A stretch of DNA of 64,000 nucleotides, taken from NCBI GenBank assembly GCA_017616735.1, contig JAFZXP010000078.1, forward strand, positions 6,630 through 70,629, read 5' to 3'. The notes under the pieces are model-generated. The model made no database searches. It saw nothing but the letters and a program-made list of their open reading frames with translations, and was not told the DNA's origin. This document shows, in pieces, positions 4,108 to 59,555 of this stretch. The stretch's first letter is position 1; the number at the start of each line of letters is the position of its first letter. Source of the DNA: Bacteroidales bacterium. Its GTDB lineage: Bacteria > Bacteroidota > Bacteroidia > Bacteroidales > F082. Position numbers and translations under genes: made by a program.

Positions 4108-5769
4108 ATGCTTAAAAGCCTAACTGTCGGTAATTATGCTTTAATAGACTCATTGTCAATAGCTTTTGACAATGGGTTTAGCGTTATTACAGGTGAGACA
4201 GGAGCCGGAAAATCAATACTGCTTGGTGCTTTGGGCTTTGTGCTTGGCGAACGTTCCGACTCGAGCATTATGCTTGACGAGACAAAAAAATGTGTGGTTG
4301 AGGCAACGTTTACTGTTGAGGATGAGAGACTTAAGCCTTTTTTTGAGGATAACGACCTTGATTTTGACCATGAACTGATACTGCGCAGGGAGCTGTCGCC
4401 TACCAAGAAATCAAGAGCCTTCATTAATGACACTCCGGTTACAGCCCAGCAGCTGAAAGAATTGGGGAGTCAGCTGGTTGACATACACTCACAGCACGAC
4501 TCGCTATTGCTGAACAATGCCGATTTTCAGCTTGGGATAATCGACAATGCAGCCGACAATCATTTGCTACTGGCTGATTATCAAGCGGTTTATCATCAGT
4601 ATGTAAAGTTGGTGAATGAGCTTGGAAAGCTGAAAGAGATGTCGCAAAAAAACGTTGCTGAAAACGATTTTCTGGCATTCCAGCTTGATGAGCTTATTAA
4701 AGCCGACCTGCAGGAAGGCGAATACGAGGATGTTGGTCAGCGATTGGAATTGTTGGAGAATGCCGAGGAAGTGAAGACACTGCTGGCACAGTCTACAGGT
4801 TTGCTTCAGGATTCGGAGATTTCCATACTTGATCAACTTAACGAGTTGAAGTCAACAGTCGATAAATTGAGGAGATACATTCCGCAAGCCGAACAGTATC
4901 TTGAAAGAATTGACTCGACCAAGATTGAGCTCAAGGATATAGCCCAAGACCTTGACAGCTTGCAAGACAGCACTCAGTTTGACGCTGCGTCACTTAATGA
5001 GATACAAGAGCGTTTCGACTTGATTCAGCGCCTGATGATGAAGCATCATGTCAATGATTACGCCGAGTTGCTGAAGATTCGTGAGGATTTGCAGGAAAAG
5101 GTCGGCGCATTCGCCAATATCGACGAGCAGATTGCCAAGAAAGAGCAGGAAGTGAAATCTTGCGAAAAAGAACTCACAAAGCTCGCTGGTAATCTGTCGG
5201 ATAAGCGCAAAAAGGTTAAAAATTCGTTTGAAAAGTCGGTTACTGAGATTATCCGTCAGTTGAAGATGCCGCACGGCGTTTTCGAGATAGAGATTGCTGA
5301 TTGCAAGGAGTTTACGGCAAGCGGCCGTGATAAAGTCAGATTCCTGTTTTCGGCCAATAAAGGCATAGCTCCCGATGATATGAGCCGTGTCGCGTCAGGC
5401 GGTGAACTTTCACGTTTGATGCTGGCCATCAAGGCGGTGGCTGCCGGTAGCAGTTATATCCCGACCCTGATTTTCGATGAAATCGACACTGGTGTCTCGG
5501 GCGAGGTGGCTTCAAAGTTGGGTGACATCATGCAGAAGATGGGGGAGACGTTGCAGATTATCTCAATCACTCATCTGCCGCAGATAGCTTCGAAAGCCAA
5601 AAATCATTTCTTCGTTTATAAAGATGAAAGCAACGAAAAAACACGTTCATGCATCAGACAACTGTCGCGTGATGAACGTGTTACTGAGATTGCGAAGATG
5701 CTTTCCAACGATAAAATAACCCCGGAAGCCATCAAAGCCGCCGAGGTTATTTTAGACTTTAGTCGTTAG
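4108..5769 (+). CDS. recN: DNA repair protein RecN
   Basis: Walker A GETGAGKS, long coiled-coil middle, SMC signature SGGELSRLMLAIK, Walker B LIFDEIDTG. 553 aa. Confidence 0.9.
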   Translation: MLKSLTVGNYALIDSLSIAFDNGFSVITGETGAGKSILLGALGFVLGERSDSSIMLDETKKCVVEATFTVEDERLKPFFEDNDLDFDHELILRRELSPTKKSRAFINDTPVTAQQLKELGSQLVDIHSQHDSLLLNNADFQLGIIDNAADNHLLLADYQAVYHQYVKLVNELGKLKEMSQKNVAENDFLAFQLDELIKADLQEGEYEDVGQRLELLENAEEVKTLLAQSTGLLQDSEISILDQLNELKSTVDKLRRYIPQAEQYLERIDSTKIELKDIAQDLDSLQDSTQFDAASLNEIQERFDLIQRLMMKHHVNDYAELLKIREDLQEKVGAFANIDEQIAKKEQEVKSCEKELTKLAGNLSDKRKKVKNSFEKSVTEIIRQLKMPHGVFEIEIADCKEFTASGRDKVRFLFSANKGIAPDDMSRVASGGELSRLMLAIKAVAAGSSYIPTLIFDEIDTGVSGEVASKLGDIMQKMGETLQIISITHLPQIASKAKNHFFVYKDESNEKTRSCIRQLSRDERVTEIAKMLSNDKITPEAIKAAEVILDFSR

Positions 5770-5807
5770 ACCTTAGACCTTAGCAACATTACTAAGGTCT
5801 AAAGTCT
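5768..5807. terminator. Bidirectional hairpin between convergent recN and the M16 peptidase gene
   Basis: AGACCTTAGACCTTAG (5768-5783), loop CAACATTA, CTAAGGTCTAAAGTCT (5792-5807). 16-bp stem with one mismatch. Starts inside the recN stop codon. No U-tract. Confidence 0.55.
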
Positions 5808-5820
5808 AAGGTCTAAGGTC
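5768..5820. repeat. Heptamer array, GACCTTA type, two inverted sub-arrays
   Basis: ACCTTAG x2, spacer, then TAAGGTC/TAAAGTC x4. Fills the whole 51-nt recN/M16 intergenic space. Confidence 0.85.
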
Positions 5821-8676
5821 TTATTTGAAGATCTCTTTATACTTCACTTCCTTAATCTTTCCATACTGCTCCAAACCCTTCAGGTCAATCTGCTTCTTGT
5901 TGCCAGACATCATGATGATTATCGGGCGGTCGTCGACGAAGTTCTTGTAGAAGCTGTAAACATCCTTGTATTCGGTTTGTTTGATCAAATCGGTAACCTT
6001 GCAGCGAGGATCTTCTTTGTAGCCTTGCTCAATCCATGCGCTTACCGAGCGAGGAATGTTGCGGAATGTGATGTAATCAGAGGCGCGTGACATTATCAAA
6101 GCGTCTTTCGAGGCGTTGAATTTTTCAATACGTGTCGGCATGTCGGTGATAAGGCCGTGCAGCGCTCCGATGCCATCCATGGTCTTATCCGACTGGGTGC
6201 CGAGGAAGGTGTAGAGATAACCTGGTTTGCGATTGAGATAGTCGTAGCGATAATAACCGTAGGCTGTGTAACCCAATGAGCGGAATTCTCTAATTTCTTG
6301 GAACACAATCGAATACATGTCGGTGCCGAAGTATTTGTTGAAAACTGTTGCCACAGCCTTGTCTTGCTTTTCGAGAGTCTCGCCCGGCACATACATATGG
6401 ATGTTGCTTTGGCGGAACTTCTTGTTGTGAGCTAAGAACACCAGATTTTCGGTGTATTTCTTCTCGGTACGGTATTTCTTCTCGACTTTCTGAGCGTTTT
6501 CGTTGACAAGGTTGTTGGACACGATTGATTTGAAAACGTTGATGGTATTGAGATTGCCGACAAAGTAGATGTTACCGCTGTAGTTGAAGATGTTGCTGAT
6601 TCCAGCGAGAATGTCGGTGCCGCTCAGTTTCTTCCATTCTTTAAGCGGAGTCTTGGCCAGATACTCTGACTGGTCACCGTAGAGGGCGTATTCATAAACT
6701 GCCTCTCCCCATGTCGAAGCGTCGTTTTTGTTGCTGTCTTCCTCAGACTTCTCCTGCTCGGCTATGATGTCTTTCTTTGTCTCGTCGTTGGCTGCATGGA
6801 ACAGCTTCTCTTCGCATAACGCAAGGATTTGATCAAGATCTTTCTCGAATCCGCTGATTTCAAGCGATGTTGTTGACGCGCCAGGGCTGATGTAGAATGA
6901 GGCGCCAATTTTCTGTAGCTCAAGGTTAAATTCTTCGAAGCTCTTTTTATCGGTTCCCTGCATGTCCCAATAGTTGACAGCTCTTTCCAAATCAGGATCG
7001 TCAAGTGTACCGTAGTTGTATTCAATGCTAAGAGTGAAGATGTCGTTGTACGGGTTTTTGGTAGAGTAGATGTTGAGCCCGTTGTCGGTAGTGGTCAACT
7101 CCACGTCTTTGCCAAATTCAATCACCTGAGGTGTCACTTCAGGCACCACTTCAGCTTCAATCATCTTTGCAAACTCCGACTTGGCCTCTGTATTTTTTGC
7201 TTCAATAGGTTTCCAGTTAGGTTTGTCAACCTTATCCTTTGCCGGGAATCCCATCTTTGAGCGGATATCGAGGTAATCGTTGCCGAAGTATTTGTTTGCG
7301 ACGGCTACTATCTCGTCTTTGGTGATGTTTTTGATACGCTCAGTCTCAGCCAAATAGTCGTCGTACGTCATGTCGCGTTGCTCAAGGTCGAGGAATAGGC
7401 TGGCCAAACCACGGAGATTCTCAGTTTCCTGAATGCGTTCTTTCAGCATGTCGGTCTTGATGGCCTCGAATAGTTCGTCGCTGAAGTCACCCTTTTTAAG
7501 CTTCTCAAGGTTGTCGAACACCAGTTTTTCGGCTTTCTCATGCGATTGTCCGATAATCTTGGGGACATAAATAATCACATTGGCACCGTGGTCTTCAAGC
7601 GAGAGAGGCATTAGCATTGCCAGCATGATGTTGCCGTTAACCATGTCTTTGTCCATGAGTCCTGTCTCACCATTGCTGAAGATGCTGCAGGCGAGGCTTA
7701 ACGGGATGTTGTCTGGGTCGGAAGCCTTCACGCCTCGCCATGCCAGTACGCCCATCTTAATAGGGGTCATGCGGACTTTCTTCACCGTAGGACCGTTGAA
7801 CGCAGGCAGAGTGTATTTTGGCTGCTGCGGTATTTCACCTCTGCGCCATGTGCCGAACTTCTCGGCTACCACAGGCTCGATATCGTCAATGTTGAAATCG
7901 CCGACGAGAATCAGAGTCATGTTGTTGGCCACGTAGTATGTGTTGTAGAACTCGCGCATCTTGCTGGTTTGCGGGTTCTTCAGATGCTCGGTCAAGCCGA
8001 TAATCGGACGGCCGTACGGATGGTCACCGAACACTTCTTTGAACATATATTCCTGGAAGGCGCTTATAGGCTGGTCGCCGTACATGTTCTTCTCTTCGTA
8101 TACGGTCTCGAGCTCGCTCTGGAACAGACGGAACACCGGGTAGCGGAAACGCTCCACATACACGTCCATCCATTTTTCAATCTGGTTGGCCGGGAAGGTG
8201 TTGTAATATATAGTCTGGTCGTAGGCTGTGCCGGCGTTCAAGCCTGTGCCGCCCATCTTGGTGAGAATCACGTCGACCTCATTCGGAATTGCATAGGCCG
8301 TTGAAGCCAATGACAACTCATTGATTTTCTGCTGTATGGCAGCGCGTTCTTTGACATCTGATGTCTCATGAAGCTTGTCATACATAAAATCGATGCTGTC
8401 GAGATACACCTTTTCGGCTTCCCAGTTGATAGTGCCGATGCGGTCGGTGCCCTTGAACATGATATGCTCAAAGTAATGAGCCATACCCGTGGCGTCGAGA
8501 GGGTCGTTTTTGCTTCCGGCATGCACGTACACTGCGCCATAGACCTGAGGTGAGCTGTGCTCCTCGCACATAACCACCTTCAATCCGTTGTCAAGCTGTG
8601 TGGTCTTGACTCTCATCTGAGCGCTCATCACATTGACGCTCAGTATGATAACTAATGCTAAGAATAATTTTTTCAT
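5821..8676 (-). CDS. M16 (insulinase/pitrilysin) family zinc peptidase, secreted
   Basis: Signal peptide and inverted zinc motif HxxEH (MAHYFEHIMFKG). 951 aa, consistent with a two-lobed M16 architecture. Confidence 0.85.
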   Translation of the reverse strand: MKKLFLALVIILSVNVMSAQMRVKTTQLDNGLKVVMCEEHSSPQVYGAVYVHAGSKNDPLDATGMAHYFEHIMFKGTDRIGTINWEAEKVYLDSIDFMYDKLHETSDVKERAAIQQKINELSLASTAYAIPNEVDVILTKMGGTGLNAGTAYDQTIYYNTFPANQIEKWMDVYVERFRYPVFRLFQSELETVYEEKNMYGDQPISAFQEYMFKEVFGDHPYGRPIIGLTEHLKNPQTSKMREFYNTYYVANNMTLILVGDFNIDDIEPVVAEKFGTWRRGEIPQQPKYTLPAFNGPTVKKVRMTPIKMGVLAWRGVKASDPDNIPLSLACSIFSNGETGLMDKDMVNGNIMLAMLMPLSLEDHGANVIIYVPKIIGQSHEKAEKLVFDNLEKLKKGDFSDELFEAIKTDMLKERIQETENLRGLASLFLDLEQRDMTYDDYLAETERIKNITKDEIVAVANKYFGNDYLDIRSKMGFPAKDKVDKPNWKPIEAKNTEAKSEFAKMIEAEVVPEVTPQVIEFGKDVELTTTDNGLNIYSTKNPYNDIFTLSIEYNYGTLDDPDLERAVNYWDMQGTDKKSFEEFNLELQKIGASFYISPGASTTSLEISGFEKDLDQILALCEEKLFHAANDETKKDIIAEQEKSEEDSNKNDASTWGEAVYEYALYGDQSEYLAKTPLKEWKKLSGTDILAGISNIFNYSGNIYFVGNLNTINVFKSIVSNNLVNENAQKVEKKYRTEKKYTENLVFLAHNKKFRQSNIHMYVPGETLEKQDKAVATVFNKYFGTDMYSIVFQEIREFRSLGYTAYGYYRYDYLNRKPGYLYTFLGTQSDKTMDGIGALHGLITDMPTRIEKFNASKDALIMSRASDYITFRNIPRSVSAWIEQGYKEDPRCKVTDLIKQTEYKDVYSFYKNFVDDRPIIIMMSGNKKQIDLKGLEQYGKIKEVKYKEIFK

Positions 8677-10882: not shown

Positions 10883-10930
10883 TTAGCCATTAGCCATTAG
10901 CTGTTAGCCATTAGCCATTAGCCATTAGCC
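10883..10930. repeat. Heptamer array TTAGCCA x7 (one unit is TTAGCTG)
   Basis: Read directly. Lies in the divergent promoter region between the ABC operon and the nuclease gene. Confidence 0.9.
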
Positions 10931-10985: not shown

Positions 10986-10998
10986 TAGCTTATTTAAA

Positions 10999-11030
10999 AA
11001 TCTTTAAATCTTTGAATCTTTAAATAAATC
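10999..11030 (+). repeat. Octamer array AATCTTTA/AATCTTTG x3 plus AATAAATC in the nuclease 5' leader
   Basis: Read directly. Lies between the TAAATTTG box (10978-10985) and ATG 11034. Confidence 0.8.
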
Positions 11031-14735: not shown

Positions 14736-14816
14736 ACTCCAAACTATGCAAAAAGCCGCAGGCTAATTATTTCAGCTAACGCTGGTGTCTGCTATTTTTT
14801 GCATAGTTTTTCGTCT
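14736..14816. repeat. Hairpin element related to the 142-bp repeat (shared arms, different apex)
   Basis: ACTCCAAACTATGCAAA ... TTGCATAGTTTTTCGTCT. The 14-bp stem AAACTATGCAAAAA/TTTTTGCATAGTTT (14741-14754 / 14796-14809) lies between convergent gene ends. Confidence 0.75.
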
Positions 14817-22854: not shown

Positions 22855-22877
22855 TATGATAATACACTTTTAACTAT

Positions 22878-23019
22878 CAACTTTAAACTTTTTCAACTAC
22901 TCTAAACTCTAAACTTTAAACTCTAAACTATTCAAGATGACTCCAAACTATGCAAAGCCTCACTTCAGGGTAAGCCCTTGAGGTCTTACATTCGTGATGC
23001 CTTGCATAGTTTTCCGTCT
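22878..23019. repeat. 142-bp direct repeat, copy 1 (heptamer array plus about 68-nt hairpin)
   Basis: Identical to 23062-23203 except G/A at 22936/23120. Hairpin arms AAACTATGCAAAGCC (22945-22959) and GCCTTGCATAGTTT (22999-23012). Confidence 0.9.
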
Positions 23020-23061
23020 TAATATCTTCAATATTTAATACGTTTACACTATTAAACTCTT

Positions 23062-23203
23062 CAACTTTAAACTTTTTCAACTACTCTAAACTCTAAACTT
23101 TAAACTCTAAACTATTCAAAATGACTCCAAACTATGCAAAGCCTCACTTCAGGGTAAGCCCTTGAGGTCTTACATTCGTGATGCCTTGCATAGTTTTCCG
23201 TCT
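23062..23203. repeat. 142-bp direct repeat, copy 2, overlapping the 3' end of trmH
   Basis: Offset of exactly 184 nt from copy 1. Contains the trmH stop (23170-23172) and its last 10 codons. Confidence 0.9.
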
Positions 23204-48298: not shown

Positions 48299-51200
48299 TT
48301 ATTTCTTGATGACCTTCTTCATCCAGATATTTTCATCGCTTCTGATCTGAAGGATGTAGGAGCCGCTGAACATATCGCTCATGTCGATATTGGTGTTCAA
48401 ACCGTTCTCCGCGTTTTCAGTCTTAACGAGCACCACCTGACCGACGCTGTTGTAAACAGTAATGCTGACTTCAGCTGTGATGTTGGCGATTGACACGTTG
48501 ATCACGTCGTTGGTCGGGTTAGGATGTACGTTGAGGGCTGCTGCGTCGATCTCGTCGATGCCAGTGCCGCGCAACAGGATGGTGAGGGCTTCTGATGGCT
48601 CACTGTCGCCGCAACCGTCGGTGTGACCAACTGCTGAGAGCTGTACAGCGCCGTTCGGATAACCTTCAACCCAAGCGATTGTCACTTCGTTGCCGTTGGC
48701 TGTCATCACACCTGCGTCGGCTGGTTCGAGAGTCCAAGTGTAGCCGATGAACATCTCGCTGCCATCGATGGTGTAAGTGGTTTCAGCCTCCTGATTGTAC
48801 ACATCTGTCGGACCTTCAGGCATCGGCAGAGCGTCGACATGTGTGAAGGTGACGTCGATGCTGTGTGTGTATGAGTTCAACTGGCAGTCGGTATATTCTA
48901 TGGCGAGTGTCACATTGCCGCTATTATAGTCTTCTGCTGAAGGATAGTACTCTATTCTCTCAGCTGTTTGAACGACGACGTTACCTGTTCCTGATGTGGT
49001 CCAGCTTACAAGTGAAGTCCATGACGGGTCATTGAACTGATAATCGACTGTGAATGGATCAGCCAAGCATGTGGTGTACTGGTCGATGCAAGTCAATTCA
49101 GGAATGCCTGAATAGCTGACTGTTGTCGAAACCGAGGCTGCGCCGCAACCAAAGGCTGCGATTGTAATTTCAACGCTGCCGTTAGCGATATCTGCTTCTC
49201 CGAATGTGTAGACATCTCCATCGAATTCACCGTCGCCGAGGCTTGTCATTATGATATCATCAGCGTTGTATGCGATATATGCTTCACTGAGGTCAATCAC
49301 GCCCATGCATGCTGTAGGAGCAAGGAATGACGGCAATAACTCAATAGATACTGCCGGTAAGAATGTCACCTGCATATCATCTGACAATGATTCTGAATGC
49401 TTTGTAGCTGTCAGAGTGAGTGTTACGATGCCGTTCTCAAGGTCTTGAGCACCTGGAGTGTATATAGGATTCATGATGGTGGCATCACTGAATGTACCGT
49501 CACCTGATGTTGTCCATTCCATTGATTCCTGGTTGGCAACATAACCGTTCAACTGAACGTCGTCTGGGCATGTCTCAACGTCCATACCGGCGCTGACTGT
49601 GAGGCTTCTGTCTCTCGGGAGGATGACAAAGTCAATCCATGCGCAGTCGCTTCCGCTTGACACGCTGCTGTCTTTAGTATATCTCCAAGTGAAGCTGTGC
49701 ACACCTGCTGTAACGGAATATTGTGCTCTTGTCCAGTTTACTGAACCTGACCAATGGGATATTTCCTCATTGTCGATCAAGAAAAACAGTTTATCGTAGT
49801 TGTTTTCTGATGATACTTTGTAGTAGAATGCTATTGAATCGGCTGCACCGACTTCGTAAGTCAAGCGGAGCTCGGTTTGTGAGTTGTGGCTGATGGCACC
49901 AGACTGCATGCAATAATTGCCTTCATATGGATTTTCATCACTGAATCTCCAAGGAGTGGCAGATGTGTTTGTCCAAAGTGTCGGATCAAGCTCGCCAAGT
50001 TCGAAGTCTTCTACATTGAGACCGATCTTTGCTGTAAAGTCGCTTGTGGCTGTGTATGCGCCTGAAGCGACATCAAGACTGAATTCTGCAGCGAAACCTG
50101 ATGGTGCGGCACCTACGTAGACTTCGAAAGCCACTGTGGCTGTACTGCCGGCGTCAATGCTGTTGACTGTAACGGTCGGATCGGTTAAGATAGTCAGGAA
50201 GATGTTGTTCATCACGAGTGTGGCGTCAGTTGCCCATGAATCGGCGTTGCCCTTGTTCTCGATAGGGAAGATGAGGCTTGCTCTCTCACCTGGATCGAGG
50301 CGGCCGTTGCCATTGCCTTCGATTTCTGCGATTGTAAGACTGCCAATGGTGAACTCAGGAGCGTAAGCTTTCAAAACGATATGATTCTCATAGACATCGT
50401 CACCGCTTGTGATGACAACACTGAACTCAATGTTTGTCTTGTTAGGCACATTGTCAGAGATGGTGAATGCGAAGGCATTGTCGATGTTGAGTGTGGCATT
50501 TGAGTTGATGGCTGAGAATTCAGCAGTGCCACTGGTGATGGTCACATATTCAGATTCTGATGTGAGAGTTGCTGTGCCAGCCGGAGCTGTCTCGCTACCC
50601 ACGTTCTTGAACACGAGATCCAGACCTGATTCGTCACCGAAGTTGAGCTGTGTGGCTCCGTTAACAAGGGTGTAGTTGTCGATGATGACGTATGGTCCGC
50701 TGGCCGGAATCACTTCAATTTCAGCTTCATAGCGGAGATAGTTCTGGCCTGTCACTGTGAGATGAAGCACTGTTGGAGGCACCTGCGGGATAATGTCGAT
50801 ATTTTGGGCACTTCCGGTAGCAGTTGCTACAGCCACGATTTCGAGGTTCTCGTCTTCGCCTTTTGTCAAAGCGATGGTTGTGCCTTCAGGAGCGGTGATC
50901 TGGAACTGGTTGAAACCAGCCAACTGCACGTTCTGGTGCTGTACTGTCATTGTTTCAGGCACCTGTGTGTAGATGCGCAAGAAAGCGTCGCAGTGAGCGG
51001 TGAACATGATATAAGTGATGTCCTTGTCATCAGTGTTGTAAGGCCATGATGTCTCCTGGAGGAAATATTTGCCAGCCACATTACCGAATGCCGGGCGCCA
51101 GTTGCCTCTGTAGGCATAAGCCGGAGTGTTGGTGTTGGTTGGATATGTAGGCATAAAGCTAGGGTCAAACTGGTCGTAAACGCCCCAAACGAAAGCGTCG

Positions 51201-52927
51201 TTCACGAATGAATAAGACACCTCGGTAGGAGAGAGCACGCCCACAGCACCTGCGTTCTGTCCGTTGTAAGTGCGGCGCATCCATTTCTCGGTGAAGCAGT
51301 TGCCGTTTGAACCGGTGTAGTTGAACATACCTGTCTGGCAGTTGATTGACATAACGAAAGGCATCTTGCCCACGTTGGTCAACTGGTCGATGTGCTGGTT
51401 ACGCACTGCAGGTTCGCCCCAGCCTTCATCAAGACCGTGGTCGCGGTGCTGTACCCAGAAGGCGCCTGCGTTGACAGCATTAACCACCTGCTCTGGTGAA
51501 CCACCGGTCCAGCCACCCATCTCTGATGGAGTTGCAGGAATGTAGTTCGTTCCTGAAGGTCCGAAATAGCTCACCACCTGTGAGGTGTTCTGTGCCTCTG
51601 ACCATACATTGCCTGGTGTGCCGCTGTAAATGCAGTTGATACGCAGTGGGTTATAACCATGTGCGCGCATGTAACCGCCAAACACCTCTGAGCAAAGCTG
51701 GAACCAACGTTCGGTCTGCCATCCTAAAGCAGTAATAGGACTTGTGTAGAAGTCCGCATTCATGTTAGGATTGGTGTATTCGTATTCAATCTGCTTGTCG
51801 GCCATCATTGCGGCTTCTGTAGCATCAGCTGCAACCAAGCGTGAGAATACCATTTCAGGAAGGTTGTCATTACCTGTAACGTCGGCATACTGGATGTCGG
51901 TGATACATGTGCCGCTGTAAGGGTGGCTCACTGAGATGGCAGGAATACCTTGTGCCATATTGGTGTTGTGGTCACCAAACAGAAGCACTGCCACTGGAGC
52001 GATGTCCCATGTGTTGTATGCGTTGTGGAACCATGTCTTCATCTGTGCTGTTGTTGTTGCAGGCATTTCATCAAGACGAACAATCTGGGTGAGAATACCC
52101 TGCTGCATACGGAAGTCTCTCAAACGTGTAGCCGGCTCGACAAATCCGTCGTTGTTAGGGATAACGATGATGTATTCGGCACCGTCTTCGCCGTCACGAA
52201 GCCACTGCTGCATTCTTGCTTCGTAGTCGATTACTGGCAAGCTGCTGTAGTTCATGATGTTCTGTTCGAGGATAGGGTCGAAGTAAGGTGAACGCAGACG
52301 GTTGTCACCAAATTGACCGTTGCCGCCCACAAATTCAACAGCCATTTCAATGTTGTGATAAACAATGGCTTCCTTGGTTACAGGGTTGAATCTGACAGGG
52401 CTTACGCTGATGTTCACAACGTCGACGCCACGAATCTGTGAAGGCTCGCTGACGCTGGCAAACTCAGCCGGGTAGAAAGCGTTCTCAGAATAAACTTTCA
52501 TGTCTTTAGTGTAGTTCATGTCAGGCTCTTCGTTCTCCATCTGGATGCCCAACGATGGTTCTACATTGACATTTTTAATAACTTGTTGTTCGTAGCTCAC
52601 CACATGAAGCACTGCCTGTGCACCCTGTGGGATAGCGATAGTGCGGCTGTATACAGGCACGTTCGGCATGCCTTTCGAGTTAGGAAGGCTGATGTCGGCA
52701 ATGCCGATGGTCTGCATCTCTTCACCGTTGTAGGTGAATGATGTGAGGCTCATCTGATCGATGGTGTAATCGATAGAAACATTGCCTCTGGTCTGCTCAG
52801 TCATCTGAAGACCAGTCTTTCCGTGGTTAAATTGGAAAGTGCGGACTTCCTGAGCTGTCATTGCAGTAGTAATGCCCAGCACAAACAATGTCAGACAAAC
52901 TAATCTGCGGAAGTTGTTCTTTTTCAT
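48299..52927 (-). CDS. Gingipain-like C25 family cysteine peptidase, T9SS cargo (1542 aa)
   Basis: Paralog of 42539..46036 (NSKGMPNVPVYSRTIAIPQGAQA; HRDHGLDEGWGEP; MSINCQTGMFN; EDFELGELDPTLW...PYEGNYCM). It adds about three TTSGDGTF-type repeats and ends in a T9SS CTD (LNVHPNPTNDVINV...GSYILQI...KKVIKK). Confidence 0.8.
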   Translation of the reverse strand: MKKNNFRRLVCLTLFVLGITTAMTAQEVRTFQFNHGKTGLQMTEQTRGNVSIDYTIDQMSLTSFTYNGEEMQTIGIADISLPNSKGMPNVPVYSRTIAIPQGAQAVLHVVSYEQQVIKNVNVEPSLGIQMENEEPDMNYTKDMKVYSENAFYPAEFASVSEPSQIRGVDVVNISVSPVRFNPVTKEAIVYHNIEMAVEFVGGNGQFGDNRLRSPYFDPILEQNIMNYSSLPVIDYEARMQQWLRDGEDGAEYIIVIPNNDGFVEPATRLRDFRMQQGILTQIVRLDEMPATTTAQMKTWFHNAYNTWDIAPVAVLLFGDHNTNMAQGIPAISVSHPYSGTCITDIQYADVTGNDNLPEMVFSRLVAADATEAAMMADKQIEYEYTNPNMNADFYTSPITALGWQTERWFQLCSEVFGGYMRAHGYNPLRINCIYSGTPGNVWSEAQNTSQVVSYFGPSGTNYIPATPSEMGGWTGGSPEQVVNAVNAGAFWVQHRDHGLDEGWGEPAVRNQHIDQLTNVGKMPFVMSINCQTGMFNYTGSNGNCFTEKWMRRTYNGQNAGAVGVLSPTEVSYSFVNDAFVWGVYDQFDPSFMPTYPTNTNTPAYAYRGNWRPAFGNVAGKYFLQETSWPYNTDDKDITYIMFTAHCDAFLRIYTQVPETMTVQHQNVQLAGFNQFQITAPEGTTIALTKGEDENLEIVAVATATGSAQNIDIIPQVPPTVLHLTVTGQNYLRYEAEIEVIPASGPYVIIDNYTLVNGATQLNFGDESGLDLVFKNVGSETAPAGTATLTSESEYVTITSGTAEFSAINSNATLNIDNAFAFTISDNVPNKTNIEFSVVITSGDDVYENHIVLKAYAPEFTIGSLTIAEIEGNGNGRLDPGERASLIFPIENKGNADSWATDATLVMNNIFLTILTDPTVTVNSIDAGSTATVAFEVYVGAAPSGFAAEFSLDVASGAYTATSDFTAKIGLNVEDFELGELDPTLWTNTSATPWRFSDENPYEGNYCMQSGAISHNSQTELRLTYEVGAADSIAFYYKVSSENNYDKLFFLIDNEEISHWSGSVNWTRAQYSVTAGVHSFTWRYTKDSSVSSGSDCAWIDFVILPRDRSLTVSAGMDVETCPDDVQLNGYVANQESMEWTTSGDGTFSDATIMNPIYTPGAQDLENGIVTLTLTATKHSESLSDDMQVTFLPAVSIELLPSFLAPTACMGVIDLSEAYIAYNADDIIMTSLGDGEFDGDVYTFGEADIANGSVEITIAAFGCGAASVSTTVSYSGIPELTCIDQYTTCLADPFTVDYQFNDPSWTSLVSWTTSGTGNVVVQTAERIEYYPSAEDYNSGNVTLAIEYTDCQLNSYTHSIDVTFTHVDALPMPEGPTDVYNQEAETTYTIDGSEMFIGYTWTLEPADAGVMTANGNEVTIAWVEGYPNGAVQLSAVGHTDGCGDSEPSEALTILLRGTGIDEIDAAALNVHPNPTNDVINVSIANITAEVSITVYNSVGQVVLVKTENAENGLNTNIDMSDMFSGSYILQIRSDENIWMKKVIKK

Positions 52928-52959
52928 TTCGATTAATTTAAATTGTTAATATTTTCTAA

Positions 52960-53001
52960 AACTCTTAACTGTCAACTGTAAACTGTCAACTGTAAACTCT
53001 T
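52960..53001. repeat. Heptamer array AACTCTT AACTGTC AACTGTA AACTGTC AACTGTA AACTCTT
   Basis: Overlaps the rnfA stop (53000-53002). In minus sense it reads AGTTTAC/AGTTGAC directly after the stop. Confidence 0.85.
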
Positions 53002-53584
53002 ATACAAGTCCTCCGAATCCCATGAATGCCATTGCAAGAATACCTGCGGTAATCAATGCGATAGGGGTGCCTTTGGTGCCCTCAGGAGCTTCCATCAGGT
53101 CGATGTGCTCGCGGATGCCTGAGAAGATTATCAAAGCCAGAGCGAAACCGATGGCGATGCCGGCTGCGTAGATGACAGCCTCGCCGACGTTGTTGCCGTA
53201 GATGAAGCCTTCACCGACCACTTTCAAAGAAACGCCGAGCACGCAGCAGTTGGTGGTAATCAATGGCAAGAACACGCCTAGTGCGGTGTAAAGCGCCGGA
53301 CTGATCTTTTTCAGGATAATCTCAACCATTTGTACCAAAGCCGCAATAACCAGAATGAACGCTATGGTTTGCAAAAATTCCAAGCCGTGGACGACAAGGA
53401 CGTATTTGTTCAAAAGGTAAGTCACCAGTGTGGCCAGCACAAGCACGAAAATAACGGCTGCGCCCATACCGACTGCGGTTGATGTCTTTTTGGAAGTGCC
53501 TAAGAATGGGCAGATTCCGAGAAACTGCGCCAAAATGACGTTGTTGACAAATATTGTCGATATAAGAATGATTATGATTTTCAT
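53000..53584 (-). CDS. rnfA: Rnf electron transport complex subunit A
   Basis: FVNNVILAQFLGICPFLGTSKK, typical RnfA. Last gene of rnfBCDGEA. Confidence 0.9.
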   Translation of the reverse strand: MKIIIILISTIFVNNVILAQFLGICPFLGTSKKTSTAVGMGAAVIFVLVLATLVTYLLNKYVLVVHGLEFLQTIAFILVIAALVQMVEIILKKISPALYTALGVFLPLITTNCCVLGVSLKVVGEGFIYGNNVGEAVIYAAGIAIGFALALIIFSGIREHIDLMEAPEGTKGTPIALITAGILAMAFMGFGGLV

Positions 53585-53593
53585 GGCACTGTA

Positions 53594-54184
53594 TTATTTA
53601 GTTTTCTTTAATCTGTTGACTATTGCGATGAGGTAACCCAAGGCGATGAAAGCACCCGGAGCGAGCACGAAGATTAGAATGGTCTGTGCATCCTCAGGGA
53701 GGAATCTCATGTTGAAAATGCTTCCGCTACCCAAGATTTCACGGATAGAACCGAGCACTGTCAAGGCGAAGGTGAAGCCTAAGCCCATGCCTGCGCCGTC
53801 AAGTATTGAAGGCCATACAGGATTCTTCGAAGCGAAAGCCTCGGCGCGGCCGAGAACTATACAGTTCACAACGATCAATGGGATAAATAAGCCCAAAGTT
53901 TCGTAGATATCCGGTACGTAGGCCTGCATAACCAATTGAACTACAGTCACAAATGATGCGATAACCACGATAAAGCAAGGAATACGCACTTTGTCGGGAA
54001 TGAAGTTTTTCAATAATGAAATCACGAGGTTTGACATTATCAAAACGAATGTTGTCGCAAGTCCCATCGACATGCCGTTGATGGCGCTAGTTGTCGTGGC
54101 TAGTGTTGGGCAGCATCCTAACAAAAGGACCAGAATAGGATTTTCCTTGATAAGTCCTTTGGTGAAAGTTTTCCAGTTACTCAT
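53594..54184 (-). CDS. rnfE: Rnf electron transport complex subunit E
   Basis: [20 protein letters not shown], typical RnfE. Operon position. Confidence 0.9.
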
Positions 54185-54764
54185 TGTTTCCTCCTTTCAT
54201 GAATTGGTCTTTGTTAGCCTCGAAACCGTCGACAGCTCTCTGAATGGCTTCCGACACGGCTCTAGAGCTGATTGTCGCTGCGGTGATGGCATCGACGTCA
54301 CCGCCGTCTTTCTTCACTCTAAGTGTGAATTGTTTAGGATCTTTGCCATCAAACTGGCCTTTGAACTTGTCGTTCACCATGTTAGCTCCCAATCCAGGGG
54401 TCTCGGCTTGTGACAATATCGACACCTTATTAATAATACCGTTTTTCAACAGTCCGACCATCAGTTCGATTTTGCCTCCGAAACCGTTCATCGAGTATGT
54501 CTTTACGGCAGCGCCGATGAAGTTGTTTTCGGCATCGAATGCCAGGTTGTAAGTGAGGTCTTCAATCACAAGAGTCTCTGTTTTGACAATTTCAACATCA
54601 GTTTTCAAAACCTCGTTGATGGCTTTGAGATTCTTGTTGGCTTCCACCTGGTCGATGGCAGGCTTTGTCAGGTTGTAAATAAATCCAAGCACTCCGCCCG
54701 ACACTATGGCTATAACCATCAGGGCGATGAGCATATTCTTTAATGTTGATTCTTTCTTTGCCAT
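54177..54764 (-). CDS. rnfG: Rnf electron transport complex subunit G
   Basis: N-terminal helix plus FMN-binding domain with [13 protein letters not shown]. Operon position. Confidence 0.85.
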
Positions 54765-54790
54765 AATTTCAAAATTTTAAGATTCAACAA

Positions 54791-55774
54791 TTATTTGACA
54801 ACGCCGAAGCGTTTTGGTTTGAAGCCTTTGTTGATGAGCGGCACCACGGCGTTCATGATAAGGATTGCGAACGACACGCCTTCAGGATACTGTCCCCACA
54901 GACGGATGATGACTGTGATGGCGCCGATACCGATACCGTAAACGATTCTGCCACCGGTTGTCATAGGTGATGTCACCATATCGGTTGCCATGAAGAAGGC
55001 ACCAAGGATGAGACCGCCATAAACGAGATGATACCAAGGAGCGATGTACTGTGTCGGATCTACCAGATAGCAGATGCCTGTCATGATGAACACAGTGAGC
55101 AGGATGCTCAATGGTGTCCAAATGTCGATGACTTTGGTGATGAGCAGGTAGATGGCGCCGATGAGCAATGCTATTGCGCAGATTTCACCGAAAGCGCCGC
55201 CACGGTTGCCAAGTATCATGTCGAGGAACTGTAAGTCGCCCGATTTGGCGAGTGTTCCAGGATCACCTTCTTTCAACAGACTCAATGGGGTAGGACCTGT
55301 CACTGCATCAGCAAAGAATCCTGATTCGAAGATTGGCTGAGCCTTTGGCCAGGTTGTCATGGCTGTCGGAAATGACACAAGCATGAACACACGGCCGACC
55401 AATGCCGGGTTGAACGGGTTCTTGCCCAAGCCACCGAACGACATCTTGGCGATTCCGATTGAAACCACGCTGCCGACGATAACCATCCACAACGGAAGGT
55501 TGGCCGGAACGTTGAAGGCCAGCAAAAGACCTGTCAGAGCGGCTGAGCCGTCGTTGATGGTCAGAGGGCCTTTGAATAAAAATTTCTGAATGAGATACTC
55601 AGTCAGCATGCAAGCTGCCACCGAAACTATGGTCAGGCGCAGGGCATACCAGCCGAAATAATAAATGGCTACAAGCAAAGCAGGGAGCAGGGCTATGATT
55701 ACCATGCTCATGATTTTCTTGACGCTTAAATCTCCGTGAACATGCGGAGAACCTGATATTGTTAACTGATTCAT
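54791..55774 (-). CDS. rnfD: Rnf electron transport complex subunit D
   Basis: RnfD/NqrB-type polytopic protein (SGSPHVHG start, DAVTGPTPL FMN-site region). Operon position. Confidence 0.9.
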   Translation of the reverse strand: MNQLTISGSPHVHGDLSVKKIMSMVIIALLPALLVAIYYFGWYALRLTIVSVAACMLTEYLIQKFLFKGPLTINDGSAALTGLLLAFNVPANLPLWMVIVGSVVSIGIAKMSFGGLGKNPFNPALVGRVFMLVSFPTAMTTWPKAQPIFESGFFADAVTGPTPLSLLKEGDPGTLAKSGDLQFLDMILGNRGGAFGEICAIALLIGAIYLLITKVIDIWTPLSILLTVFIMTGICYLVDPTQYIAPWYHLVYGGLILGAFFMATDMVTSPMTTGGRIVYGIGIGAITVIIRLWGQYPEGVSFAILIMNAVVPLINKGFKPKRFGVVK

Positions 55775-55776
55775 GG

Positions 55777-57126
55777 CTATTTCTGATTACGTGAACGTAT
55801 TAATTGTCCTGTCTTGGTCTTGCCGTAGCGGATATAGTCGGCCAACGGGATGTTGGCAGGGCATGTGAATTCGCATGAGCCGCATTCGATGCAGTCCATG
55901 ATGTTGTGTTTTTCTGTTTCCTCAAACTTGTTCTGACGTGCGAGACGGTTCAGGAGGTAAGGTTCAAGGCCCATTGGGCAGGCTTGCATGCACTTGCCGC
56001 AACGGATGCAGTTGCTGACCTTACGCGGCTGAGCGTCTTTTTCATTGAGCATCAAGATTCCAGAGGTTCCTTTGATGGTCGGGAATGTGGTTACACTCAC
56101 CGACTTGCCCATCATAGGTCCGCCGTTGATGAGGTTCGCTGTGTCTTCAGGTAGACCGCCGGCTGCTTCGATAAGCAAATTGGCAGGTGTTCCGATTCTT
56201 GTCAAGAAGTTAGATGGCTTTTTAACAGATTTACCTGTCACTGTGACGACGCGGTAAACCAACGGTTTGTTCTTCTGTACAGCCTCATAAATAGCGAATG
56301 TCGAAGCTACGTTGACTACGACACATCCGGTTTCGATAGGCAGTTTGCCTGATGGCACCTCGCGTCCGGTCACCGACTTGATGAGCTGTTTTTCACCGCC
56401 TTGAGGATATTTGGTCTTCAAAGGCTGAATCTCGATGCCCTCGAAATAACTGTCGCTCTTCACGATTTCGTCGAGCTTCTTGGCGGCTTCGATTTTGTTG
56501 ACCTCGATTCCGACCACGCCCTTAGGAGCGTTAACGGCTTTCATTATCACTTTCACGCCAACGAGGAACTCGTAAGGTTTCTCAATCAACAGTCGGTTGT
56601 CGCAGGTGAGGTAAGGCTCGCATTCCGCCGCGTTGATGATTACGTATTCGGCTTTCTTGTCCTTTGGTATCATCAGCTTGACGTAGGTTGGGAATGTAGC
56701 GCCGCCCAAACCGACTATGCCGTGCTGTTTGATGCGTTCAACAATCTCTTCGCTTGAGAGGGTGATATCTTTTACTAAAGTGTCGCTGGTGTCAATGCCT
56801 TCTAGCCATTCGTCGCCTTCCACATCGATGAAGATAGCCGGTTTGCGGTAGCCGGTGTGGTCCATCACGTCGTCAATTTTATTGACTGTGCCGCTCACTG
56901 ATGAGTGTACGTTGGCGCTGATGAAGCCCTTGGCTGTGGCGATGAGCTGTCCCACCTTCACCTTGTCGCCCTTTGCGACTATAGGCTCTGCTGGAGCGCC
57001 CAAGCACTGACCGAGCGGGATGATAACCTGCTTCGGTATCTCAAATGTGATGATAGGCTGGTCCGACGAAAGCTTGTTTTCTTCCGGATGAACGCCACCT
57101 TTTGGAAATGTCTTAATTGGATTCAT
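55777..57126 (-). CDS. rnfC: Rnf electron transport complex subunit C
   Basis: Two 4Fe-4S motifs CIRCGKCMQACP and CIECGSCEFTCP. NADH/FMN-binding-type middle region (GIVGLGGATFPT). Confidence 0.9.
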   Translation of the reverse strand: MNPIKTFPKGGVHPEENKLSSDQPIITFEIPKQVIIPLGQCLGAPAEPIVAKGDKVKVGQLIATAKGFISANVHSSVSGTVNKIDDVMDHTGYRKPAIFIDVEGDEWLEGIDTSDTLVKDITLSSEEIVERIKQHGIVGLGGATFPTYVKLMIPKDKKAEYVIINAAECEPYLTCDNRLLIEKPYEFLVGVKVIMKAVNAPKGVVGIEVNKIEAAKKLDEIVKSDSYFEGIEIQPLKTKYPQGGEKQLIKSVTGREVPSGKLPIETGCVVVNVASTFAIYEAVQKNKPLVYRVVTVTGKSVKKPSNFLTRIGTPANLLIEAAGGLPEDTANLINGGPMMGKSVSVTTFPTIKGTSGILMLNEKDAQPRKVSNCIRCGKCMQACPMGLEPYLLNRLARQNKFEETEKHNIMDCIECGSCEFTCPANIPLADYIRYGKTKTGQLIRSRNQK

Positions 57127-57129
57127 ACC

Positions 57130-58041
57130 TTATGCTTTACTTTCGTTAGTTGTTTCTGTTTGATTTGCTTGTGCCGGAGCTTCTGGAGCTTCTACTTTCG
57201 GCTTTCTTGGCGGGAAGTTGACCTCATGGATGCTTCCGCGAGGGCAGACCTCCACGCATTTGCGGCACTGTTTACACTTCGTGTAGTCGATGTAGGCGAG
57301 GTTGCCGCGCATTTCGATGGCTTCGAACGGGCAAGTCTTGAAGCACTTCTGACAAGCTATGCAGCTCACCTTGCAGTTCTTCATGGCAATGGCGCCTTTC
57401 TCAACGTTGTTGCAGGCCACATAAACGCGACGGTTGTTCTTGCCCTTGGCACGAATCTCGATGACTCCGCGCGGACAAGCCTTGGCGCAAGCTCCGCAGC
57501 CTACGCATTTGTCTTCGTCAACCTCAGGAAGACCTGTCTCTTTGTTGATGTGGAGAGCGTTGAACTGGCATTTCTTAACGCAGTCGCCCAAGCCGAGGCA
57601 GCCGTTGGGACATCCGTTCTCGCCTGCATACAAAGTGTTGGCGAAACCGCAGATGTCGGCTCCTTCATAATGCACCTTCGATGGTGCGTTTTCACAAGTG
57701 CCGTTGCATCGTACCACCGCGATCATCGGTTCGGCAACGGTAGCGGTAAGGCCCAGCAGTCCGGCTACTTTCGACATGTCTGAGCTCGGGCAGTTCAACC
57801 CGGCGAGGCTCTTCTTCTCGGCGGCAGCTTTAACGCAAGCCTCCGCGAAGTTACGGCATCCTGCGAAACCGCAGCCGCCGCAATTGGCACCGGCCAGCAC
57901 CGATTCGACTTCGTCGATCAGAGGATTTTCCTCAACCTTGAACTTCTTCGCTACGAAGAACAAAATCAACGCTGCGACCCCACCTAAAATTCCCAAAATG
58001 ATAAGGGACCAAAGTAAAATGTCATTCATAAAACAAAACAT
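57130..58041 (-). CDS. rnfB: Rnf electron transport complex subunit B (polyferredoxin)
   Basis: N-terminal helix, CGGCGFAGC cluster, several CxxCxxCxxxCP ferredoxin motifs (CVGCGACAKACP, CIACQKCFKTCP, CKQCRKCVEVCP). Confidence 0.9.
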   Translation of the reverse strand: MFCFMNDILLWSLIILGILGGVAALILFFVAKKFKVEENPLIDEVESVLAGANCGGCGFAGCRNFAEACVKAAAEKKSLAGLNCPSSDMSKVAGLLGLTATVAEPMIAVVRCNGTCENAPSKVHYEGADICGFANTLYAGENGCPNGCLGLGDCVKKCQFNALHINKETGLPEVDEDKCVGCGACAKACPRGVIEIRAKGKNNRRVYVACNNVEKGAIAMKNCKVSCIACQKCFKTCPFEAIEMRGNLAYIDYTKCKQCRKCVEVCPRGSIHEVNFPPRKPKVEAPEAPAQANQTETTNESKA

Positions 58042-58559: not shown

Positions 58560-58577
58560 CATCGTAAAATGTGAGCT

Positions 58578-59537
58578 ATGAAATTTGATTACGAAAAACA
58601 TGTTAACAAAGCTATTGTCATGAAAGACAATGTGATATATCGGCTTAAAGGGATTACTTTGCCAGGTTTTCACGGAAAGCCTCTCTACGACGTGCTGGCT
58701 TATTTTCTGAACGGGTTTACCAAAGGCTACCTGACCGACCGTGGCGCAGCGGTGGCGTTCAATGTGTTTTTGGCGATTTTTCCGGCGGTTATGGTGCTGT
58801 TCACCTTTATCCCGTACATGCCGCTTGAAGGCGTTCAGACAATGATAGTCAATATGATACACCAAATGGTGCCGAAAAACATTGCCGATAGGGTGGTGGG
58901 TACTATCGACGAAATCATGTCGCACCAACACAACACTCTTATGTCGATAGGTATCATAATGGCGTTTTATTTCAGTTCGGGCGCCATCCGCGCGTTTTTC
59001 CGCGGCTTTGACATGGGTGTCAACCACATAGGCAAAATGTCGATGGTCAGGATGTACGGCGGCGGTTTGCTTACAACACTGATTTTGGGCGTTTTGTTGA
59101 TAACATCAATCGTTATTATCATCGTCGGCAACGATTTTCTGCCCGATTTTTTCAATACAATCCATTTTTACAACAAATTTGTAATCACTTTGATTGATAT
59201 CGGACGATGGCTACTAACTGTATTTGTGCTGCTGGTGGCGATTTCTGTGCTATATTATTTCGGCAACCCTCACAAAAACAGGAAATTCCGACTGTTTACC
59301 CCTGGCACTTTAATGTTTACATTGCTCTTCATTCTGGGTACGCTGGGCTTTAATTATTATATCGTCAATTTCTCTAAATACAATGCGCTTTACGGCTCGA
59401 TTGGAGGTTTGATAATATTCATGATGTGGATGTATGTGAACTGCATCATTGTCCTTATCGGCTATGAGCTGGATGCCAGCATATTCTTGGTGGAAAATCA
59501 AATTCCACAGCTGAAGAATAAAAAAACTAATGGCTAA
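58578..59537 (+). CDS. YihY/BrkB (ribonuclease BN-like) family membrane protein
   Basis: DRGAAVAFNVFLAIFPAVMVL and YGSIGGLIIFMMWMY are typical of the YihY family. 6 helices. Confidence 0.8.
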   Translation: MKFDYEKHVNKAIVMKDNVIYRLKGITLPGFHGKPLYDVLAYFLNGFTKGYLTDRGAAVAFNVFLAIFPAVMVLFTFIPYMPLEGVQTMIVNMIHQMVPKNIADRVVGTIDEIMSHQHNTLMSIGIIMAFYFSSGAIRAFFRGFDMGVNHIGKMSMVRMYGGGLLTTLILGVLLITSIVIIIVGNDFLPDFFNTIHFYNKFVITLIDIGRWLLTVFVLLVAISVLYYFGNPHKNRKFRLFTPGTLMFTLLFILGTLGFNYYIVNFSKYNALYGSIGGLIIFMMWMYVNCIIVLIGYELDASIFLVENQIPQLKNKKTNG

Positions 59538-59555
59538 TGGCTGATGGCTAACGGC
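59531..59555 (+). repeat. Heptamer array TGGCTAA TGGCTGA TGGCTAA CGGC
   Basis: The first unit encodes the last codons and stop of yihY. Same unit as the reverse complement of the 10883 array. Confidence 0.8.

Follow-up and report, generated by a model that had tools for sequence, protein, structure and literature searches.

Heptanucleotide tandem arrays in the intergenic spacers of an uncultured Bacteroidales genome and its relatives

Short tandem arrays of degenerate 7-nt units occupy many of the gene junctions in a 64,000-nt stretch of DNA from an uncultured Bacteroidales bacterium (GenBank assembly GCA_017616735.1, contig JAFZXP010000078.1, positions 6,630 to 70,629), analysed here at its full length and referred to as the window. 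In the window and its relatives these arrays form a repeat population that is specific for period 7/8, intergenic and lineage-specific, and that draws on a small repertoire of units. We consider it probable that they belong to the heptanucleotide simple-sequence class known as short tandemly repeated repetitive (STRR) sequences or long simple sequence repeats (SSRs), born by slippage and acquiring hairpin or linker roles only secondarily. Heptanucleotide repeats are among the oldest unexplained features of bacterial intergenic DNA, noted in cyanobacteria since 1990 and found over-represented in surveys of genomes in 2007, and the uncultured Bacteroidales of gut and rumen are another rich reservoir of them. 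New are this host lineage, the variety of units that a single genome contains, figures for how often arrays fuse to stop codons, and a composite module that has been copied between spacers.

Tandem Repeats Finder (TRF), run over the whole 64 kb for array positions, returned ten period-7 arrays at nine places. An earlier, sequence-only reading of the same DNA had counted eight loci; the arrays it saw are real and its coordinates agree with those of TRF to within a few bases, but the count was wrong. A strict in-house detector covering periods 4 to 12 found six arrays, all of period 7, for which the chance expectation was 0.0 in 200 third-order Markov simulations of the window. A greedy open reading frame (ORF) model leaves about 5% of the window non-coding, and all ten arrays lie in or on spacers, i.e. 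within that 5%. They are short and degenerate, with 3–9 units and 69–91% matches. An assembly artefact was ruled out: identical arrays are found in independent assemblies of several samples, and homologous arrays in other species.

Read against the ORF ends, seven gene ends in the window terminate inside or directly against an array, which upholds the earlier statement that arrays start at or overlap annotated stops. At the convergent recN/M16-type peptidase junction, a TTAGACT/TTAGTCG/TTAGACC array of 4.6 units (5752–5783, plus strand) is the left arm of an inverted pair and contains the recN stop (5767–5769; gene assigned by its RecN family match) within its third unit. The inverted copy, CTAAGGT or, in the sense of the peptidase gene, TTAGACC (5792–5821, minus strand), adjoins the peptidase stop (5821–5823, minus strand); this stop and that of rnfA lie 0–1 nt from an array. 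The nadE and yihY genes end inside a second unit. The nadE stop (28198–28200) falls within a TTTTAGT/CTTTAGT/CGTTAGT array, given in nadE sense, that occupies the entire 21-nt convergent spacer (28183–28209, minus strand), and the yihY stop (59535–59537) within a CTAATGG array of 4.3 units (59527–59556, plus strand), 30 nt beyond which gpsA starts. The ffh stop lies in the first unit of AGTTTAG-AGTTGAT-AGTTGAT-AGTTAAA-AGTTAAA-AG (33024–33061, plus strand), which is the whole ffh-folD spacer from the stop TAG to the ATG. The yggS stop (29031–29033) marks the edge of an AGTTGAG/AGTTTAG array of 5.4 units (29000–29037, minus strand), 3' of which follow AGT-AGTTTTT-AAGTTTA, a GC hairpin and the nadE start. 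One nucleotide past the rnfA stop (53000–53002) begins an AGTTTAC/AGTTGAC array of 5.7 units in gene sense (52959–52998, minus strand), which finishes 31 nt ahead of the start of a gene for a C25-peptidase protein of the type IX secretion system (T9SS).

A more elaborate arrangement is found between the trmH-like and acyl-ACP thioesterase genes. Here TRF reports a tandem duplication of 184 bp (22863–23203, minus strand; 1.9 copies, 96% identity), each copy consisting of one strong hairpin element and one heptamer module. The module, which reads (AGTTTAG)n-AGT-AGTTGAAAA-AGTTTAA-AGTTGAT-AGTTAAA in gene sense (22866–22929, minus strand), terminates 11 nt ahead of the start codon at 22854; its second copy (23043–23113, minus strand) lies 56 nt past the trmH/rlmB-like stop (23170). 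The sequence confirms the earlier claim that AGTTnAn-type units, read in gene direction, follow ffh, rnfA, yggS and the trmH-like gene.

One array listed earlier with the gene ends does not belong there. The TTAGCCA array of 6.9 units at 10883–10930 (no strand assigned), whose unit is the reverse complement of the CTAATGG unit at the yihY end, sits between divergent gene starts, those of an ABC-transporter ATPase (10808, minus strand) and a T9SS nuclease-like protein (11034, plus strand). It is positioned upstream of both candidate −7 boxes of the Bacteroidetes type and is probably not transcribed. In the same gap a period-8 array, AAATCTTT repeated 3.5 times (10998–11025, plus strand), stops 8 nt short of the start codon at 11034; it is the same phenomenon as the heptamer arrays and was absent from the earlier list.

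Is this a peculiarity of one contig? As relatives we gathered Ffh-based loci, one genome per species. Among these the window groups with metagenome-assembled genomes (MAGs) of uncultured rumen and hindgut Bacteroidales (near it are RUG isolates, genomes from red deer, horse and buffalo, "Candidatus Limimorpha" and bacterium F082), the nearest showing 96% Ffh identity with DNA identity of just ~77–83%. A NadE-based metagenome search contributed 80 further contigs. The comparison set, the window plus 160 related loci, comprises 2.40 Mb, with 214.6 kb of spacers. At a TRF score of at least 38 and at least 3 copies, the census of the 2.40 Mb gave 119 arrays of period 7 and 50 of period 8, with none of period 4–5, 4 of period 6, 19 of period 9, 14 of period 10 and 12 of period 12. 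When only spacers are considered, real and Markov-shuffled sequence yield 84 versus 0.8 arrays of period 7, 37 versus 1.3 of period 8, 7 versus 1.1 of period 9 and 7 versus 1.6 of period 10, longer periods being at background level. The family that the sequence-only reading had proposed from a single stretch is borne out by this period-7 excess over shuffled intergenic sequence in the spacers of 161 loci. In the relatives, 86 of 110 non-identical arrays are intergenic and 15 overlap crude ORF calls. Array density is lineage-specific, ranging from 0 to 8 per 21 kb across 80 related genomes, and unit sequences are wholly different among genomes, for instance AACTCCT x17 (locus L009), GGACTTG x13.6 (L026), TCAAACT x11 (L004) and, in Proteiniphilum, AGTGAAG x12.9.

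Arrays of one further type, AAATCTT(T)/AAATTTT(G) with period 7/8, recur in many relatives including Marinilabilia rubra, often from a stop codon to the next start (window 10998–11025, L001 450–509, L099 9947, L120 9940, L054 18333). Their units are similar to the TTTG promoter motifs of Bacteroidetes.

How could such arrays arise and come to lie where they do? On the account we favour, units would be amplified through replication slippage or unequal recombination, in steps of 7, 14–15 and 139–184 nt, and arrays would be copied and homogenised among nearby spacers via ectopic recombination, while purifying selection would clear those that harm genes. Deletions at TAG/TAA/AGT microhomologies would trim unconstrained DNA until an array meets the nearest constrained feature, either a stop codon, which would become the first unit, or a translation start region. 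Deletions that clip a C-terminus should be survivable, because the arrays stop every frame within ~21 nt, and this would be why the recN, nadE and yihY ORFs enter their arrays by one to three units. Two properties would be consequences and not purposes: inverted pairs would form long hairpins at convergent gene ends, and direct arrays would serve as structure-free, A-rich intercistronic linkers that suit the Shine-Dalgarno-independent Bacteroidia.

Several observations weigh against this slippage-born account. As it stands, it would leave the choice of period 7 unexplained. Unit number is unchanged in five arrays among same-species strains with 97.5–99.98% identity. Ten of 38 co-directional arrays start −3 to +1 nt from the end of the upstream stop codon, where 1.65 are expected. 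Eight independent window arrays include two identical unit pairs, TTAGCCA (10883, 59527) and TTAGAGT (22866, 29000), with 0.049 expected (P = 0.001). The irregular junction of the composite module, AGAGTAGTT, is found in three different spacers, and the yggS-nadE spacer common to the window and the related locus L019 is 96% identical. Any explanation of the arrays must cover the specificity for period 7/8, the fusion to stop codons, the small shared repertoire, the irregular module copied between nearby spacers, and the contrast between stability within species and rapid turnover between them.

The stop-fusion test was restricted to arrays with at least 30 nt of free spacer and compared with uniform placement (Poisson P about 1e-5). 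In these arrays the stop codon is literally the start or tail of a unit, as in TAG·TTTAG-AGTTGAG, T·AGTGAAG-AGTGAAG, TGA·GTTT-TGAATGT and TAA·G-AGTTTAC. A second group of arrays terminates 0–12 nt ahead of a start codon, starts here being taken from the longest ORFs and hence less reliable. The two groups differ in their sense-strand bias: stop-proximal arrays have G>C in a ratio of 13:2, and start-proximal arrays C>G in a ratio of 10:4 (Fisher p = 0.0025); with orthologues removed the comparison is 11:2 versus 3:10 (p = 0.005). By the same measure array-free spacers give 245:234 after stops and 197:287 before starts, and the background after stops rules out a general compositional gradient as the source of the stop-proximal G-richness. 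The G excess follows from the inclusion of the TAG or TGA stop itself in the repeated unit. The exact fusion to upstream stops thus supports the earlier view that arrays sit on gene ends (10 versus 1.65), but that view fails for the class as a whole. Non-identical intergenic arrays fall into 57 co-directional, 14 convergent and 15 divergent cases, a distribution that matches the 63/18/19% shares of spacer nucleotides (chi-square p = 0.81). As the split between spacer types follows spacer nucleotides, the arrays as a class are not 3'-end elements.

Could the arrays nevertheless be built to stop ribosomes? The sequence-only reading had suggested selected translational stop blocks that end translation in all frames at gene ends, a proposal that we regard as highly improbable. 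Several observations speak for it. Array starts at stop codons exceed chance, TAA, TAG or TGA occurs on at least one strand in 51 of 55 window units and on both in 41 of 55, and the ORFs of recN, nadE and yihY finish within 1–3 units of entering an array. All three sense frames are closed in 46% of co-directional arrays, compared with 8% of 35-nt array-free spacer windows. Such closure, however, is what arithmetic gives for one stop per unit when the period cannot be divided by three, which holds for both strands, and the predicted stop in every frame is only partly realised: the arrays 29000–29037 and 52959–52998 leave one sense frame open. Antisense stops are as frequent as sense stops (consensus units with a stop in co-directional spacers: 63% sense, 70% antisense), and divergent spacers, which have no upstream ORF, score higher still (87% and 80%). 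Composition alone predicts a stop in 41–54% of units, and in 62 distinct units TAA/TTA and TAG/CTA reach just z = 1.3–1.4 over composition-preserving shuffles. Many relatives' arrays have units that are stop-free in gene sense (AACTCCC and CATTCCG, for example), near relatives manage without arrays at all, and every gene already possesses its own stop codon. With the spacer-type split proportional as well, no sense-specific, 3'-end-specific enrichment of stops beyond composition was found in these arrays. We conclude that the arrays are rich in stops because their composition is AT-rich and because stop codons seeded them, and that this richness is a by-product, not a selected trait. It does have a practical side: arrays that end ORFs within ~21 nt shape gene 3' ends and C-termini in annotation.

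Copying between loci is indicated by the composite module. In general form it reads (AGTTKAG)n-AGT-AGTTTWA-AAGTTTA..., with the irregular junction mentioned above. Modules with this junction occur between ffh and folD in L001, L002 and L019, between yggS and nadE in the window, L019, L085 and L086, and between trmH and the thioesterase gene in the window, twice; at the last site L003 has a AGAGCAGTT variant. About 32 nt, from the stop codon through the junction, are identical after ffh (L001, L002, L019) and after yggS (L086), and L003, L085, L019 and the window carry variants of this stretch. Since ~32 nt are identical at two genes in different genomes, the module has spread by copying and not by convergence. 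Copying by what route? The module-bearing sites lie within 10 kb of one another, and the module substitutes for the whole ancestral spacer without interrupting it. Ectopic recombination or conversion is therefore favoured over transposition: the sites are less than 10 kb apart, terminal repeats and target duplications are lacking, and the spacer is replaced.

That the arrays are parts of small non-autonomous mobile cassettes, inserting at stop codons or replacing sequence from them, seems to us quite improbable. Such cassettes would account for identical modules at different genes and for the ~32 nt common to the ffh and yggS sites. It also speaks for them that module presence is independent of protein similarity, that array-plus-hairpin blocks act as units of 139–184 nt, and that a 160-nt block with AGT flanks is present in one of two close relatives and absent from the other. 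In these two Proteiniphilum MAG contigs (~99% identical locally) the block is found in L057 (7592–7759) and not in L052; it comprises 12.9 copies of AGTGAAG and a unique stretch of 70 nt, directly after the stop codon. Its first breakpoint lies at the stop (TAGT·) and its second at AAGT·, and both have AGT microhomology. Its 70-nt tail, however, has no second copy in the 2.4 Mb. Nor do the direct arrays show the marks of a miniature inverted-repeat transposable element (MITE) or other transposable cassette: terminal inverted repeats, a consistent target-site duplication and an associated transposase were all not found. Replacement of whole ancestral spacers, at sites within 10 kb, is what ectopic conversion would give.

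The hairpin elements next to the modules are a separate matter. Three of them (14736–14815, 22936–23010, 23121–23203) have conserved inverted termini, AAACTATGCAAA...TTTGCATAGTTT, and differing interiors; the minus-strand RNA fold of 22925–23020 reaches −36.9 kcal/mol (z −5.1). Neither an Rfam match nor a copy among the 160 related loci was found for elements with these termini, which could be a terminator family or a MITE-like element. Another dispersed element, ...GGAGATTCCTCC(C)TACGGTCGGAATGAC... / GTCATTCCGAG..., is found in L019, L086, L119 and L004, in spacers that hold heptamer modules in the window. It appears that several small repeat families compete over identical intergenic sites.

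A small repertoire of units common to several loci would also be expected if the arrays were phased binding platforms for a protein (of the cold-shock OB-fold, S1, RRM or KH type) that covers ~7 nt of single-stranded nucleic acid. Its binding to mRNA would modulate how stable the message is, how termination is coupled to reinitiation, or how the next cistron is translated. Of the 62 distinct units 14 have an AGTT/AACT or TTAG/CTAA core, with 5.9 expected; AGTTnAn units point the way the genes run at four independent co-directional sites, which lie on either DNA strand; arrays lie exactly at stop codons or just ahead of start codons; and the shared spacers are highly conserved. For TAACTGA repeats MacGregor proposed the same, and CspB binds heptamer repeats with one protein per heptamer (PMC4679880). 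Yet at the same site related genomes have wholly different unit sequences, and at all sites examined arrays are dispensable. About 17% lie in divergent spacers, the array at 10883 being probably upstream of both promoters, and both orientations are present, stop-proximal arrays being G-rich and start-proximal ones C-rich. No candidate protein came to light. We rate a binding platform as unlikely.

If slippage made the arrays, does their copy number change? The five arrays compared among strains are those at 28183, 29000, 33024, 52959 and 59527, where metagenome consensus assemblies could mask minor variants. Constant unit number among same-species strains indicates that slippage is rare and that the arrays are not hypermutable. 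Of the interpretations offered by the sequence-only reading, slippage-prone but tolerated tracts come nearest to the evidence, although copy-number change among same-species strains was not seen. For the same reason it is scarcely credible that the arrays are phase-variation (contingency) repeats, which would switch expression of a neighbour at high frequency via unit number. In favour of switching, the arrays at 10883/10998 and 52959 lie upstream of large T9SS-secreted proteins, and SSRs in 5' regions can switch expression (PMC12721329). Against it, besides the constancy in the five arrays, stand their shortness and imperfection (69–91% matches) and the mainly housekeeping nature of their neighbours (ffh, folD, nadE, yggS, recN, rnfA).

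A larger difference may exist at the 184-bp duplication. In L171, from another sample and 99.8% identical, 22863–23203 is present as a single copy, for which assembly collapse is also possible, and contig L170 ends precisely at the duplication. The state of L171 and L170 is either a polymorphism or an assembly effect. Arrays are breakpoints of 140–180-nt duplications, and the contigs of assemblies can break or collapse at them.

Between species the picture is one of gain, loss and resizing, the arrays being where change is concentrated. L001 and L002 (94.7% identity) differ by indels of 15 and 147 nt, both within arrays; the latter is a 139-bp tandem duplication of an octamer array, a small hairpin and a heptamer array. 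L099 and L120 differ by exactly one 7-nt unit, and periods of 14 and 21 are found within arrays. Between ffh and folD there are 5 units in the window, 8.7 in L001, L002 and L019, and unrelated heptamers in L011, L012, L013, L016, L026 and L048. In L003, L004 and L119 this junction is a 10-nt spacer with no array, which in L003 (TAAC-AGTTTAA-CC) looks like one single unit. The yggS-nadE spacer varies from 1 nt to 329 nt among near relatives, and L084, whose NadE is 98% identical, has neither nadE-flanking array and a classical hairpin terminator instead. Arrays are thus stable within species and are gained, lost and resized between species. The 96% identity of the yggS-nadE spacer in the window and L019 exceeds that of the local coding sequence (~88%; third codon positions ~67%). 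The adjoining coding ends are likewise 90–100% identical, and the similarity may reflect a recombination patch instead of constraint.

At the other end of yggS, the longest ORFs of yggS (minus strand, to 29870) and of a sulfatase/LTA-synthase-like gene (plus strand, from 29611) overlap; in public gene calls their starts are at ~29702 and 29754, which leaves a gap of 52 nt. Heptamer arrays of L001, L002 and L019 at locus 7980–8060 align to about 29740–29815 of the window, which is without an array there.

Predicted RNA folds distinguish inverted from direct arrays. The inverted pair 5752–5821 spans the whole convergent recN/peptidase spacer as a long hairpin (−37.9 kcal/mol, z −7.2). Of the U-tract expected of an intrinsic (Rho-independent) terminator there is just a weak version, UUAUUU, on the recN side and nothing on the peptidase side, and a putative terminator role is no more than plausible. 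Inverted pairs are also found in the relatives L009, L028, L065 and L026. Direct arrays, by comparison, have a predicted −0.041 kcal/mol per nt, versus −0.106 for length-matched array-free spacer windows (p = 2e-8). The low structure was not found to be owed to repeat order, arrays folding like their own shuffles (p = 0.38). Start-proximal halves are A-rich at their end, reading ...AGTTAAAAG-ATG at folD. Initiation in Bacteroidetes dispenses with Shine-Dalgarno pairing, its tuning factors being low mRNA structure and an A at −3 (PMC6847099). By their predicted folds, structure-poor, A-rich arrays are at least compatible with a start-site function. The ffh-folD gap is just 5–17 nt in most relatives, so an array inserted there must still allow translation of folD.

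These properties raise the possibility, in our view distinctly unlikely, that selection has made the composite module a stop-to-start intercistronic cassette, in a lineage blind to Shine-Dalgarno sequences. AGTTKAG units fused to the stop and A-rich AGTTWAA units ending in AAAAG-ATG may form a phased track free of structure, which a protein with a 7-nt footprint possibly coats. If so, terminating ribosomes would be passed to the next start, or the junction would be protected, and the cassette would have spread by recombination among operon junctions. The heptamers of Bacteroidia, Beggiatoaceae and cyanobacteria would then be a common, unrecognised layer of post-transcriptional operon organisation.

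The genes bordering the arrays were identified by NCBIfam as RecN, an M16-type peptidase, an ABC ATPase, two large T9SS-tailed proteins, a TrmH/RlmB-like methyltransferase, NadE, YggS, Ffh, FolD, RnfA, YihY and GpsA; the T9SS domains indicate a Bacteroidota host. Rfam gave zero matches over the whole window at gathering threshold and none around 22700–23300 at E <= 1, and ARAGORN found no tRNA or tmRNA in the window. Elsewhere in the window, at 26100–26180, four copies of ATACACGCAGAATAA lie ~21 nt apart in the spacer upstream of a 645-aa protein (26239–28176) without a family match; in sequence this looks like an iterated operator or regulator-binding array rather than a heptamer array. The window also contains an Nqr-type operon (NqrF to NqrA by Pfam; 37127–42605) and a complete Rnf operon (53000–58041), between which lie genes for two C25-peptidase (gingipain-like) proteins, both very large and both ending in T9SS sorting tails (42539–46036, 48299–52927).

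How do the arrays compare with systems already described? With contingency-locus SSRs they have in common short tandem units, made by slippage, in non-coding 5' regions. Contingency units, however, measure 1–5 nt and form long, perfect, hypermutable tracts by surface genes, whereas the window arrays are short, imperfect and lie mostly by housekeeping genes; variation of unit number among close strains was not seen in the five arrays compared. Repetitive extragenic palindromes (REPs) and bacterial interspersed mosaic elements (BIMEs) are likewise small dispersed intergenic repeats, often at gene 3' ends, that form hairpins when inverted and are homogenised within a genome. Unlike the window elements, which are tandem 7-nt units whose direct arrays lack an internal palindrome, REPs are single imperfect palindromes of 20–40 nt mobilised by RAYT transposases.

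Closer parallels exist among heptamers, and the earlier claim of an undescribed family does not stand, the class being on record (PMC4679880, PMC4692102, PMC2670836). Many bacterial genomes are over-rich in heptameric SSRs, which in Xanthomonas and Nostoc are intergenic (PMC4692102, citing Mrazek 2007). The GGGAATC/GGGGAYT heptamers of these genera (Rehm et al. 2015, PMC4692102) resemble our arrays in being over-represented in intergenic DNA, in forming inverted pairs in convergent spacers, and in occupying mostly the same intergenic sites in near relatives with extensive variation in length and sequence. Polymerase slippage has been suggested as the source of the 7-nt preference (PMC4692102). 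The Xanthomonas and Nostoc units differ in being G-rich and capable of forming G-quadruplexes; those of the window are AT-rich, with no G-runs and no G-quadruplex potential.

TAACTGA heptamers lie beside start codons in Beggiatoaceae, in cyanobacteria and in five Bacteroidetes, Paludibacter (P. propionicigenes) being one of these (MacGregor 2015, PMC4679880). They too are intergenic direct repeats of 2–6 or more copies near gene boundaries, sporadically distributed (Paludibacter and Flexibacter among the Bacteroidetes) in Shine-Dalgarno-poor contexts, and in forward orientation every single-base variant yields stop codons (PMC4679880). BOGUAY, however, has essentially one unit, forward and just upstream of start codons (PMC4679880), whereas the window genome has several unit families, mostly abutting stop codons. 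No TAACTGA array was found in the window; the nearest unit, AACTGTC/AACTGTA (52959), is one mismatch off, in reverse orientation, and abuts a stop. Among the relatives, the rumen metagenome contig L124 has AACTGAT/AACTGAC arrays at 10888 and downstream of nadE, one of which ends 3 nt ahead of a start codon; both unit and orientation are those reported from Beggiatoaceae.

The STRR sequences of filamentous cyanobacteria are repeats of the same kind as our arrays but of other sequence families. Heptanucleotides of this type were reportedly described by Mazel et al. in 1990. STRR1-3 have the units CCCCAGT, TTGGTCA and CAACAGT, none of which is matched among the window units, and to our knowledge fusion to stop codons is unreported for STRR. 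Differences lie in the phylum, in the units themselves (TTAGCCA, TTAGACC and AGTTnAn in the window) and in the short (3–9 units), degenerate arrays of the window. STRRs, "usually made up of 7 bp repeats", give rise to hairpins in the hupS-hupL spacer, and a part in transcript stability or translational coupling has been suggested for them (PMC2670836). Common to both are tandem 7-bp units that are dispersed, mostly intergenic and of few families per genome, and the capacity for hairpins inside operon spacers. Seven-nucleotide tandem units in dispersed intergenic copies, a limited repertoire, a sporadic distribution and variation between species are the defining features of the STRR/long-SSR class that were examined, and all of them are found in the Bacteroidales arrays described here.

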